This document shows positions 31,682 through 37,569 of a stretch of 64,000 bases of DNA, piece after piece. The notes under the pieces were generated by a model. The model saw nothing but the letters and a program-made list of their open reading frames with translations. It was not told the DNA's origin and searched no databases. Every line of letters starts with the position of its first letter. Positions within the stretch are counted from its first letter, which is position 1. This DNA is from an uncultured Gammaproteobacteria bacterium (GTDB lineage: Bacteria; Patescibacteriota; Patescibacteriia; UBA11705; DATKZF01). Position numbers and translations under genes: made by a program. The stretch is taken from positions 34,100 through 98,099 of the forward strand of contig CAYPKD010000002.1 in the NCBI GenBank assembly GCA_964411255.1. The letters are read 5' to 3'.

Positions 31682-33535
31682 ATGGAAAAGATTCGCAATT
31701 TTTGCATTATCGCTCATATAGATCATGGGAAATCAACTCTTGCTGATCGACTTTTGGAATTAACCGGAACTGTTGAAAAACGGAAAATGAAAGAACAGCT
31801 TTTAGATACAATGGAGCTTGAAAGGGAGCGGGGGATTACTATTAAATTGCAGCCAGCACAAATGAAGTATAAAGAATATATTCTAAATCTTATTGACACG
31901 CCTGGTCATGTTGATTTTACTTATGAAGTTTCGAGATCCTTAGCAGCAGTTGAAGGTGCTATTTTATTAGTAGATGCAACTCAGGGTGTTCAGGCGCAGA
32001 CATTGAGTAACTTATATTTAGCATTGGATGCTGATTTGGAAATTATTCCAGTATTAAATAAAATCGATTTGCCTGCAGCCAATGTTGAAAAAGTAAAGAA
32101 CGAAATTGTAAATTTGCTTGGCTGTAATGAAGATGAAATATTGGCAGTTTCAGCAAAGACAGGGAAGGGTGTTGAGGCTGTTTTGGATAAAGTGGTTGAA
32201 AAAGTCCCTGCTCCGGCCTTCGCTAAAGCTACGGCCGGCAGGCCAAAGGGAAATGTTGATGAAAATTTACAGGCTTTGATTTTTGATTCTTTTTATGATG
32301 AATATAAAGGGGTGGTGGCTTATTGCAGAATTGTAAATGGTAAGATTTCTAAAAATGACGAAATTTTATTTATGGCGCCAAATAAAAAGAGTGAATCTCT
32401 TGATGTTGGCGTGTTAAAGCCTGATATGAATTCAATTGATGAATTAAAAGCTGGGGATATTGGATATATTATTACAGGACTGAAAGACCTTGAGCTTTGT
32501 AAAGTAGGTGATACCATTACTTTAGCAAAAAATCCTGCTGATAAGCCATTGCCAGGCTATCAGGAAGTGAAGCCAATGGTTTATGCTGGAATATTTTGTA
32601 AAGAAGGTTCTGATTTTAATGATTTGCGGGATGCCATTTATAAATTAAAATTAAATGATGCTGCTTTAGTTTATGAACCTGAAACTTCACCAGTTCTGGG
32701 ATTGGGATTTAGATGTGGGTTTTTAGGCCTTTTACATTTAGAAATATTTCAGGAAAGATTAAGGCGAGAGTTTGATTTGGATATTATTGTCACTGTACCA
32801 AGTGTTGCATTTAAAGTTGTTTTAAAAGAGAATGCTAAGATTCCAAAAGAAGTAAAGCCAGAACAAATGATTTCTGACAGGGAATATATAATAAATAATC
32901 CAAATGATTTGCCTGATCCAACTGTGTATGAGCGAATTGAAGAACCGATTATGAAAGTAGATATTGTCTGCCCAAAAGATTATATTGGTAATGTAATGGA
33001 ATTGGTTACAGATAAAAGGGGAGAGTATTTGAATACGGAATATGTTGATGATGAAATGACAATTTTGCATTATCAAATGCCCTTAGCAAAGGTGATTGTG
33101 GACTTTTATGATCAATTAAAAACAGTTAGTTCAGGATATGCGTCATTAAATTATGATTTTGAAAAATATGAGCCAACAGATGTGGTTAAGCTTGATGTAT
33201 TGGTGGCTGAAGAAAAAGTTGATGCCTTTTCAACCATTGTATATAAAGACGAATCGTTTCGGGTTGGTAAAAAGATAGTTAAAGCTTTAAAAGACGTTAT
33301 ACCGCGTCAGATGTTTGTGATAAAATTGCAGGCAGCAGTAGGTGGTAAAATTATTGCTGGAGAAAGAATTTCTGCAATGCGAAAAGATGTGACTGCCAAA
33401 TTGTATGGCGGTGACTGGACCAGACGGCAAAAGCTTTTAGAAAAGCAGAAAAAGGGAAAGAAAAAGATGATGGAAATGGGTAAAGGAAAGGTGAATATTC
33501 CGCCAGAGGCGTTTATTGCGGTTTTGAAGCGGTGA
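31682..33535 (+). CDS. lepA: translation elongation factor 4 (LepA)
   Basis: FCIIAHIDHGKSTLADRLL, DTPGHVDF, NKIDL GTPase motifs plus LepA C-terminal domain. Confidence 0.92.
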   Translation: MEKIRNFCIIAHIDHGKSTLADRLLELTGTVEKRKMKEQLLDTMELERERGITIKLQPAQMKYKEYILNLIDTPGHVDFTYEVSRSLAAVEGAILLVDATQGVQAQTLSNLYLALDADLEIIPVLNKIDLPAANVEKVKNEIVNLLGCNEDEILAVSAKTGKGVEAVLDKVVEKVPAPAFAKATAGRPKGNVDENLQALIFDSFYDEYKGVVAYCRIVNGKISKNDEILFMAPNKKSESLDVGVLKPDMNSIDELKAGDIGYIITGLKDLELCKVGDTITLAKNPADKPLPGYQEVKPMVYAGIFCKEGSDFNDLRDAIYKLKLNDAALVYEPETSPVLGLGFRCGFLGLLHLEIFQERLRREFDLDIIVTVPSVAFKVVLKENAKIPKEVKPEQMISDREYIINNPNDLPDPTVYERIEEPIMKVDIVCPKDYIGNVMELVTDKRGEYLNTEYVDDEMTILHYQMPLAKVIVDFYDQLKTVSSGYASLNYDFEKYEPTDVVKLDVLVAEEKVDAFSTIVYKDESFRVGKKIVKALKDVIPRQMFVIKLQAAVGGKIIAGERISAMRKDVTAKLYGGDWTRRQKLLEKQKKGKKKMMEMGKGKVNIPPEAFIAVLKR

Positions 33536-33536
33536 T

Positions 33537-34112
33537 ATGATATTAAAATTTGATCGAAAATTAAATAGAATGCCCAGGTATGATTATTCTCAACCTGGGT
33601 ATTATTTTGTAACGATTTGTACGAAAGATGGTACAGAATTTTTCGGTGAGATAAAAGATGAAAAAATGAATATGAATGAATATGGAGAGATTGTATTTAA
33701 ATATTGGAATCAAATACCAGAATATTATAAAAATGTTTGTATTGATAAATTTATTATAATGCCAAATCATTTGCATGCAATAATTATTATCAATGATGTC
33801 GGGAGGGTAGGGACAGAATACTATTCTGTCCCTACGGCCAATACAAATAAATTAAATACCGACCTCATTGATGAAAAACCATCTTATGGATTATTATCAA
33901 ATATAATAAAATCATCAAAAAGAGAAAGTACGATTTGTATAAGAAAATATTTGAAAGATTATGATTTTCAATGGCAACGATCATTCCATGACCATATAAT
34001 AAGGGATGAAGATGATTTGGCACGAATTCGGCAATATATAAAAGATAATTCATGTAAATGGCATTTGGATAGGAATAATCCTGAAAATATTAATAAAAAA
34101 GCCCACATTTGA
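33537..34112 (+). mobile_element. IS200-like Y1 (HUH) transposase, REP-associated tyrosine transposase (RAYT)-like
   Basis: YYFVTICT, MPNHLHAII (HuH), C-terminal RQYIKDN Tyr; starts 2 nt after lepA stop; contains REP palindrome in frame. Confidence 0.7.
33807..33835. repeat. REP palindrome gtagggacagaatactattctgtccctac (inside RAYT CDS)
   Basis: Same arms as copies at 59671 and 61428. Confidence 0.7.
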
Positions 34113-34126
34113 GTGGGTTTTTATTG

Positions 34127-34966
34127 TTATTGTTGAAGTTCTACTTTATCAATTGTTTCTCCGTCTATATCTTTTCCAAAAACAAATTTCCGAGCACCTT
34201 GAGCATCATACATCTTTTGTGAAAGATAGATGATCGTATTACCGTCTTCATTACCAAAATTGTGTGCAGTGAATCTTAGGGAGGCTCTAATTGCCTGAAT
34301 GAAAGTAGCTAAATGAGTTTCGCCGTTAGAGCTTACCATCTCATGCCAGCTGGCTAAAACATTTTTCCCAAGAGGATCATTTTTATCAAATTCAATTACC
34401 ACAGCATAGGACATGTTATGCGATTGATTAAGCATCCAAGTCATTAATCTTTTTGCAAAGTTAGTACCATCCTGAGCATCTGCAATGAACCCTTTTATTG
34501 CACCCATTTGTTGATCTGTTATTCCATTACCTTGTTTTTGAACTATGTGTCCAGTTTCAACCATCTCACGGATTTCTCTGGGCATATTGAATTGCCCAGT
34601 TTCTACATGTTCAATGAATGGATCAATTGGAGGGAAATAGAATGAAAAGCTTCCATGATTTGACAATAAAGAGTATTGTCCAGTAAAGAGACCATCCCAA
34701 TTTGTATTTGCTGAATCGAATCCAAATTTACTTAAGACAATTTTTTTACATTTTGGTGTTAACCTTCCATAAATAAACCATTCGTTTTCAGATCGGTATA
34801 TTGTACCAAGAAGATATACCTCGACCTTTAGGAATTTAGTGCATGAAAAGGTACGCTCCAAAGAAAAATAAAGTATCTTTTTATTGGCAACACCTTCTAA
34901 AATGAAGTCCCATTTTCCAGGTCCTTTTCTGATTGGATAGGTTGCTGGAATCAGTTGGATTGTCAT
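34127..34966 (-). CDS. hypothetical protein (~280 aa)
   Basis: Start at ATG 34966 (RBS ggaggtg); longer call extends into non-genic DNA. Confidence 0.5.
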   Translation of the reverse strand: MTIQLIPATYPIRKGPGKWDFILEGVANKKILYFSLERTFSCTKFLKVEVYLLGTIYRSENEWFIYGRLTPKCKKIVLSKFGFDSANTNWDGLFTGQYSLLSNHGSFSFYFPPIDPFIEHVETGQFNMPREIREMVETGHIVQKQGNGITDQQMGAIKGFIADAQDGTNFAKRLMTWMLNQSHNMSYAVVIEFDKNDPLGKNVLASWHEMVSSNGETHLATFIQAIRASLRFTAHNFGNEDGNTIIYLSQKMYDAQGARKFVFGKDIDGETIDKVELQQ

Positions 34967-35123
34967 AACGACACCTCCATGAAAAGAACTGTGCTTAAAG
35001 CAGTGCAAGCACAAAACACCCATACCCGCCAGAGGCGGACGACCTGCCATAACGGCCAGGGATTTATAGGATTGTATAGATGATTCTTCTTTTTGTCAAT
35101 TGCTAAAAAAAAGCAAATAAAAA

Positions 35124-35197
35124 AATGATGTCATTTTGTATGGACTGAATAATATTCTGTCCATACAAGCAATAATTTACTTATACGTGACATCATT
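35124..35197. repeat. REP variant gtatggactgaataatattctgtccatac nested in 10-bp outer inverted repeat aatgatgtca/tgacatcatt
   Basis: Compensatory G>T / C>A change in stem relative to other REP copies. Confidence 0.6.
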
Positions 35198-35349
35198 TTT
35201 AATAAAAAGCCGGCGCAACTGTCCACATTACAAGTGACAGCATAATTATTACGATAACTATTGCCCAAACTAGGCGTTGTTTTTGTCTTTGATTCATAGT
35301 AAAATGATTAGTACATGGATTCTGAATCCTGAATCTTGAATCCTAAGTC

Positions 35350-37197: not shown

Positions 37198-37569
37198 ATG
37201 AAGAAAGATATAAATAATTTTGATGATTTAGAGGCTTGGCAAAAAGCACACGAATTAGCTTTGGATATTTATAATATAACATCAGGTTTTCCAAAAGAAG
37301 AGCTTTTTGGATTAACGAGACAATTAAGAAGAGCTGCCAGTTCTGTGTCAGCAAACATTGCGGAGGGTTTTGCTCGTTTCCATTATAAAGATAAGGCAAG
37401 ATTTTATTATCAAGCCAGAGGATCAAATGCAGAAGTACAAAGCTTTTTATTATTGTCCAGAGATTTACATTTTATTACGTCTGAAGAATGTTCTGGATTA
37501 TTTGGAAAGGCTAATGAGACCAGAAAGTTAATAAATGGTTTGATAAAATCTATCAATCGCCAGTTATAA
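37198..37569 (+). CDS. four-helix-bundle protein (23S rRNA IVS protein family), copy 2
   Basis: LEAWQKAHELALDIY...RRAASSVSANIAEGFARFHYKDKARFYYQARGSNAEVQS. Confidence 0.85.
   Translation: MKKDINNFDDLEAWQKAHELALDIYNITSGFPKEELFGLTRQLRRAASSVSANIAEGFARFHYKDKARFYYQARGSNAEVQSFLLLSRDLHFITSEECSGLFGKANETRKLINGLIKSINRQL

Follow-up and report, generated by a model that had tools for sequence, protein, structure and literature searches.

The closest described relatives of the gene considered here are the transposases of TnpA-REP subclass 2.4 (Quentin, Siguier, Chandler and Fichant, 2018; PMC6006769), which correspond to group 4 of the REP-associated tyrosine transposases (RAYTs) of Bertels et al. (2017; PMC5581495), REP standing for repetitive extragenic palindromic sequence. 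Members of this subclass carry a REP in frame inside the transposase gene itself, which was called a "remarkable and unique feature" (PMC6006769). [quoted passage not shown] The REPs are of a "double foot" type, with GT[AG]G at the 5' end and C[TC]AC at the 3' end (PMC6006769). Table S1 of the same paper gives 28-nt double-foot REPs, for example GTAGAGACGCACGGCCGTGCGTCTCTAC for Chloroflexus, and Quentin et al. point out that the double foot could derive from an inverted dimer via a central deletion (PMC6006769). We describe here a gene of this kind in a 64,000-nucleotide stretch of DNA from an uncultured bacterium (contig CAYPKD010000002.1, positions 34,100 to 98,099), which we call the window. 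Our conclusion is that the gene is very probably an intact, single-copy subclass 2.4 RAYT, and that the 29-nt palindrome within it is a resident copy of its cognate double-foot REP, tolerated in a peripheral loop of the protein.

The window has 35% GC, and its MutL is closest to Patescibacteria proteins. The RAYT gene (33537..34112, forward strand; 191 amino acids) starts 1 base past the stop codon of lepA (31682..33535), is present in one copy within the window and is followed by a terminator-like hairpin after its stop codon. An earlier note, made from the letters of the sequence, had called the product a RAYT-like Y1/HUH transposase, and the YYFVT motif, the HUH motif, the C-terminal tyrosine and the fold all bear this out. 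The protein has the motifs YYFVT, MPNHLH, WQRSFHDH (with W146-Q147) and YIKDNS. The HUH codons, H78-L79-H80 (33768..33776, forward strand), encode two histidines that lie on a beta strand, align with H59 and H61 of Escherichia coli TnpA-REP (4er8) and are invariant in the family alignment. The Y motif (34035..34052, forward strand) contains the catalytic Tyr167 (34035-34037), which aligns with the catalytic Y115 of 4er8 and sits in model helix 158-177, and Asn171 in the position of the third metal ligand. In an alignment of 30 homologues, whose consensus is NHIH / WQ / YIxNNP, the HUH and WQ residues and Y167, I168 and N171 are invariant, and every family-invariant residue is kept in the window protein. 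With its full-length open reading frame (ORF) and all of these residues present, the gene is intact and is no pseudogene.

Profile and structure comparisons agree with this assignment. We found 1830 homologues of the protein, and the family profile matched 7,695 clusters at 50% identity at E <= 1e-30. When the profile of the 30 homologues was compared with the Protein Data Bank (PDB), the sole match was E. coli TnpA-REP (4er8; E = 9e-5). The AlphaFold model of the protein has a predicted local distance difference test score (pLDDT) of 81.5, and in a Foldseek search with this model all 30 best PDB matches were IS608, ISDra2, IS200, Sulfolobus and TnpA-REP transposases (probability 1.0; template modelling score 0.55-0.68 normalised by target). 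The Pfam family Y1_Tnp (PF01797) matched at 22.6 bits, against a cut-off of 23.0, and in the C-terminal half only, because the loop splits the domain. The NCBIfam RAYT equivalog REP_Tyr_transpos (NF047646) gave 52.3 bits, under its cut-off of 80; this model appears to have been built around subclasses other than 2.4.

The likeness to subclass 2.4 is close: 191 against 194 residues, an H78-to-Y167 spacing of 89 against 88, the WQ pair, a loop between beta3 and alphaC, an end about 20 residues past the Y helix without a C-terminal tail domain, and an in-frame double-foot REP; the subclass is also of low copy number and patchy across phyla. Where the consensus motifs are concerned, the window protein has close variants: NHLH, with L in place of I/F/V, and YIKDNS, in which D replaces N and S replaces P. 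It also differs from the published members, which come mainly from Cyanobacteria, Bacteroidetes and others, in its low-GC, Patescibacteria-like host; in lacking flanking REPs, with a fusion to lepA and a gene order, lepA-RAYT-recJ, that is conserved; and in carrying its REP within an 84-nt module whose outer stem is also found outside genes. The gene is a Patescibacteria-like addition to subclass 2.4, and the in-gene REP is a trait that has already been published. What is added beyond that is incremental, namely the frame statistics, the fixed 28/29-nt size, the sharing of flanks, the 84-nt module and the housekeeping context.

Three other systems are more distant. E. coli TnpA-REP/RayT (PDB 4ER8; subclass 2.2, RAYT group 2) shares with the window protein the HUH/Y1 fold, the positions of the catalytic Tyr and Asn, the WQ residues that contact the GTAG foot, and REPs that start with GTAG. 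However, the sequence similarity is weak, the E. coli protein has an inhibitory C-terminal tail, the E. coli REPs are imperfect, bulged, single-footed and outside the gene, and rayT has no internal hairpin. IS200/IS605 TnpA proteins (IS608, ISDra2) share the fold and, by analogy, would share the recognition of a hairpin in single-stranded DNA and a covalent Tyr intermediate, whereas the window gene is single copy, lacks left and right subterminal hairpins and tnpB, and has a class 2 Y motif (Y...N, YIKDN) rather than Y...Q. Finally, the intragenic REPs and Rickettsia palindromic elements discussed by Di Nocera et al. (2013; PMC3733652) are likewise in-frame palindromic repeats in permissive parts of proteins, but they lie in unrelated host genes, whereas here the element sits in the gene of its presumed transposase, at a position that the family conserves.

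The palindrome inside the gene and in its homologues

The in-frame REP that the earlier note had placed in the coding sequence is indeed there, and it belongs to the GTAG class: a perfect 29-nt palindrome at 33807..33835, GTAGGGACAGAATACTATTCTGTCCCTAC, of the form GTAG...CTAC with 14-nt arms and a 1-nt centre. It lies 30 nt past the HUH motif and is read in frame as VGTEYYSVPT. As DNA it folds at -13.1 kcal/mol (z = -5.7), and exact deletion of the 29 nt would cause a frameshift ahead of the catalytic Tyr. The residues that it encodes and their neighbours (92-117) have pLDDT below 50 and lie between the HUH strand (78-85) and a helix (119-139). The palindrome is itself enclosed in a larger module of 84 nt, or 28 codons (33789..33872, forward strand; residues 85-112), which is closed by an imperfect 13-bp outer stem (33789-33802 / 33859-33872), folds at -22.1 kcal/mol (z = -7.4) and is closed likewise in the relative L096. 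An outer inverted repeat of at least 8 bp surrounds the internal REP in only 4/60 family genes and is no family trait. In the window as a whole, hairpins with a perfect stem of 9 bp or more number just 17, against 1-7 per shuffle, and the three 14-bp GTAG hairpins rank among the longest.

A REP inside a RAYT gene had been thought unusual in the earlier note. To place it in its family, we inspected the segment from the HUH to the WQ motif in 83 homologous genes, taken from 80 genomic loci (about 80 genomes, including Gammaproteobacteria, Chloroflexota, Cyanobacteria, Nitrospirota, Bacteroidota, Omnitrophota, Patescibacteria and others). In most homologues (53/83), as already published for subclass 2.4 (PMC6006769), this segment holds a perfect palindrome with a stem of 10 bp or more, and in 34/83 the stem is at least 14 bp long; in controls, the N-terminal part of the gene reached 9 bp at most and shuffled segments 10 bp. 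A 28/29-nt palindrome of the form GTAG[GA]G[GA]C...CTAC is present in 46 of the 83 genes. Examined likewise, E. coli rayT has no internal hairpin of this kind. A proxy that we tried in addition, back-translation of the peptides of 246 proteins, was dropped as too permissive: it gave potential stems of at least 14 in 191 observed and 70 shuffled cases.

The reading frame of the palindrome is informative. The first G of GTAG is the first base of a codon in 27 genes, the second base in 19 and the third base in none; in the last of these frames a TAG stop would be read. The peptides read from the same DNA element diverge accordingly (VGTEYYSVPT, VGTGLDLSLQ, CRGTACRAPT, RRDVACNVST). Because one palindrome is thus kept in two frames with unrelated peptides, the constraint acts on the nucleic acid and not on the peptide. 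The alternative, that the palindrome simply follows from conservation of the peptide VGTExxSVPT and is meaningless as DNA, is barely credible: VGTE[YHQ][YC]SVPT does recur in many homologues from unrelated phyla, but the two frames yield unrelated peptides, the frame of arm 2 switches between the 28- and 29-nt lengths, identical hairpins stand in non-coding DNA of the same loci, and the encoded residues are predicted to be disordered. A coincidental palindrome, which the earlier note had allowed for if homologues had the same residues without REP-like DNA, is likewise set aside, since homologues with the same or with different residues carry REP-like DNA.

Within the stem, the outer eight pairs are conserved, while pairs 9-14 each occur as 3-4 Watson-Crick types; the window REP and that of a gammaproteobacterial homologue (L001) differ by one compensated pair. 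Our covariation table gives 97.5% pairing, a figure that is partly circular since the hairpins had been preselected as palindromic. The unbiased evidence for the stem is the positional enrichment over the controls, together with the distribution of frames.

Copies outside the gene

A search of the window for the REP with up to 3 mismatches found 3 sites, against 0 expected (100 shuffles). The earlier note had reported that the arms recur at 59671 and 61428. The first of these is an exact inverted copy: 59671-59699 is the reverse complement of the internal REP over 29/29 positions, its central base being G, not C. The second holds only in part, since 61428-61455 is a perfect 28-nt palindrome that has only the outer 10-nt arms (GTAGGGACAG/CTGTCCCTAC) in common with the internal REP and a different core (GTCGCGAC). 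The third copy, at 35138-35166, had been put forward as a case of compensatory change. Its substitutions G4>T and C26>A do form a T-A pair that keeps the stem (GTAT...ATAC), but it also has an uncompensated A9>T, a predicted internal mismatch. The stem is under selection at the level of nucleic acid, as the note had argued, but the evidence for this is the covariation across genomes; the single pair at 35138 is by itself anecdotal. Apart from this GTAT...ATAC copy, the window REPs have the double-foot form GTAG...CTAC, and each is one perfect palindrome with a 0-1-nt centre, as distinct from a REPIN (a REP doublet forming a hairpin).

All three extragenic copies are enclosed by an outer stem. 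The degenerate REP at 35138-35166 lies within a 12-bp outer stem in a module at 35123..35198 (forward strand; fold z = -8.0), which is a paralogue of the gene-internal 84-nt module and shares with it the flanks AATGATGTC (5') and CAATA (3'). The copy at 59671-59699 belongs to a composite module after mutS (59620..59727; fold -48.8 kcal/mol, z = -13.2), in which an outer stem surrounds three hairpins, the REP standing between one of 20 bp and one of 6 bp; a T run follows. Similarly, a composite module before mutL (61391..61506; fold -54.4 kcal/mol, z = -15.3) consists of an outer stem around three hairpins, the middle one being the variant 28-nt REP.

Such modules recur elsewhere. The post-mutS architecture, a closing stem with three hairpins, is also found in the relatives L101, in two direct copies (4850-4965 and 5835-5945), and L102 (4378-4475), and a module of this build with a double-foot REP in the middle is present in L089 (about 2015-2115) and L081. 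In contrast to these, L100 has at its post-mutS site the closing stem only (CAGGG...CCCTG plus a T run), and the module at 61391-61506 is missing at the orthologous site of L098/L099, where the flanks are 94% identical. This suggests that palindromic elements nest, apparently by preference, in the loops of existing hairpins, such as the mutS terminator, and come and go between close relatives.

Across the homologous loci, the hairpin inside the gene is also found outside it, identical or nearly so, in 21/80 cases, mostly within 250 nt, and about 14/80 loci have a REPtron-like flanking arrangement. The hairpin that internal and extragenic copies share differs from locus to locus, a pattern of concerted evolution of the REP within genomes. 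The sharing can extend beyond the hairpin: at least 10/16 flanking bases agree in 7/25 internal-extragenic pairs, against 3/350 cross-locus controls.

Several individual loci add to this picture. The metagenomic contig L091, which is unrelated, has in intergenic DNA (7467-7623) a tandem pair of units, each about 87 nt long, that copy the REP-containing piece of a subclass 2.4 gene (the HUH-distal loop) and are 80-85% identical to nucleotides 253-341 of the window gene; one of them has an in-frame stop. The pair represents either remnants of the coding module or pieces of it that were mobilised. In L086 (6464-6540), L087 (9072-9150), L036 and L076, double-foot REPs of differing types lie next to each other within one genome, for example ...ACAGAATA... 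beside ...GGCGGGTTTAAACCCGCC..., and some genomes (L025, L031) have a pair of subclass 2.4 genes whose internal REPs are of separate types. The mixture of REP types and the paired genes fit cognate pairs of enzyme and REP.

Why the internal copy persists

The proposed mechanism follows from what is known of E. coli TnpA-REP: this enzyme binds REP hairpins in single-stranded form, requires their 5' GTAG foot and cleaves at a CT dinucleotide (PMC3479197), with A3 and G4 of the foot available to pair with the cleaved CT (PMC3479197). By analogy, the window enzyme would bind a single-stranded hairpin through its 5' GTAG foot and cut at CT. Because the 3' CTAC is complementary to GTAG, the stem itself would offer a CT paired to the guide bases, and cleavage might take place at the CT supplied by CTAC in the same stem. 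The internal copy is best regarded as one member of the REP population of the genome, situated in the permissive, disordered loop between beta3 and alphaC, where it is probably tolerated because the loop is peripheral. The turnover that homogenises the extragenic copies would also keep the internal copy homogeneous with them, and the physical linkage of substrate and enzyme may be what retains it.

Several observations weigh against this interpretation. The scores against curated models fall short of their cut-offs (Pfam 22.6 against 23; the NCBIfam equivalog 52.3 against 80), and the Y motif of the window protein has NS where class 2 has NP. No report of activity for any subclass 2.4 enzyme was found in the literature searched. 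The strong palindrome is missing in about a third of the homologues, and the covariation figure has the partial circularity noted above, a consequence of the palindromic preselection of the hairpins. The genomic setting is also atypical: there is no REP within 1 kb of the gene in the window, the nearest being 1026 nt downstream, with lepA 1 base upstream, so the classic REPtron arrangement is absent. There are just four copies in 64 kb, which does not establish a "repetitive" character for the window genome, and a metagenome scan for the exact REP found 13 sites in unrelated organisms (GC 35-49%), none of them from the window genome. Nevertheless, we hold it very probable that the gene is an intact RAYT with a resident cognate REP.

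That coding flanks are shared speaks for an active role of some kind for the internal copy. One possibility is that it is a selected cis element, either a donor ("master") copy or an autoregulatory site, at which the RAYT would bind single-stranded DNA or an mRNA hairpin would throttle translation. In keeping with this, perfect palindromes are retained in genes of different phyla whose proteins are 40-50% identical; extragenic copies bear the coding flanks of the gene; the palindrome measures 28 or 29 nt, not a multiple of 3, so that the ORF depends on the REP; and in the lepA-RAYT-recJ lineage the internal copy is the sole REP linked to the gene. However, an equal pattern would arise without function if extragenic copies continuously re-inserted into the gene or converted its copy, and the data fit copying from the gene to intergenic DNA as well as the reverse. 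The palindrome is absent from about one homologue in three, its distance from the HUH motif ranges from 15 to 180 nt, the internal hairpin has no T run for termination, and Quentin et al. consider in-gene insertions probably neutral (PMC6006769). We therefore regard selection on a cis element as possible but doubtful.

It also seems unlikely that the gene-internal module is the donor of the REP modules of the genome, the 84-nt in-frame piece of coding sequence having been copied to 35123-35198 and to the L091 units. If this were true, the RAYT gene would amount to an autonomous element with a piece of its own ORF as the mobile part, and the ORF would need that piece to stay in frame.

A recent REP insertion that interrupted or inactivated the transposase gene, as the earlier note had suggested, is highly improbable. 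The internal REP is identical to the extragenic copy at 59671, and REP insertion into genes has precedents (PMC3733652), but the ORF has its full length and retains every invariant residue, and the REP residues fall in a low-confidence loop. Moreover, the same REP stands in the same place in L096 (84% DNA identity), with one central change, and in L097 (56% protein identity) a variant occupies it whose outer arms are the same and whose arm 2 is read in another frame; the in-gene palindrome is family-wide. The gene order lepA-RAYT-recJ is kept in both of these relatives. Overall, the window gene is a single-copy, vertically inherited (domesticated) RAYT, and its resident cognate REP is the reading that we carry forward.

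Neighbouring loci and implications

Downstream of the RAYT gene the collinearity with L096 breaks: blastn alignment stops at window 34100/35200 against L096 743/791, and a 1.1-kb segment of the window (34101..35199) is missing from L096. This segment has the REP module at its right edge and also holds an orphan ORF (34127-34966, minus strand, 279 amino acids, with a GGAGG ribosome-binding site; the longest ORF reaches 35050). Among 5.8 billion proteins the only match of the orphan ORF is itself, and neither Pfam nor NCBIfam gave a match to it. At the other side of the RAYT gene, the LepA orthologue of L097 (314-2638) is 774 amino acids long, not 617, and within its GTPase domain a nuclease-like domain, PDDEXK_3, is recorded. 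Downstream of recJ in the window, 37198-37569 encodes a four-helix-bundle protein (TIGR02436, 121 bits; weak Avd-like match), and there is no GTAG hairpin beside this gene in the window.

The region between the two composite modules, the mutS-mutL spacer (59740-61390), is ORF-poor and has 45-53% GC, against about 33% in the neighbouring genes. It contains a perfect TTGACA-17-TATAAT promoter at 59773-59801, a second promoter-like site at 60942-60970, and terminator-like hairpins at 60899-60927 and 61344-61372. Among its internal repeats, a 68-nt unit stands at 60631 and again at 61106, and TACAATACAGTTCCTGCGG occurs three times. An Rfam search gave no match in the window at gathering score, none in the spacer at E <= 1 and none in the relatives, and a search of the window for tRNA and tmRNA found none. 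All relatives with a MutL 64-88% identical have a spacer of 620-1150 nt at the same place; in L098 about 1 kb of it is 73-82% identical, and L100 and L101 share blocks of 85-90% identity, with a recurring domain CCYGCGG...GATCGCCCC...GGGGCGGAAAC...CCGCRGG that shows a T-A/C-G exchange. We consider the mutS-mutL spacer a candidate for a conserved, undescribed structured non-coding RNA, and this locus may be a more interesting lead than the in-gene REP.

For the RAYT gene, the analysis has consequences for annotation, in that it should be recorded as an intact subclass 2.4 TnpA-REP rather than as a pseudogene. Peptides such as VGTEYYSVPT, CRGTACRAPT and RRDVACNVST in "hypothetical proteins" are read-throughs of a double-foot REP type. 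The published trait is extended to a small-genome, Patescibacteria-like lineage. In subclass 2.4, the cognate REP can be read directly from the RAYT gene, which makes the co-evolution of REP and RAYT easy to survey, and the sharing of flanks hints that gene-internal copies take part in the turnover of REPs.

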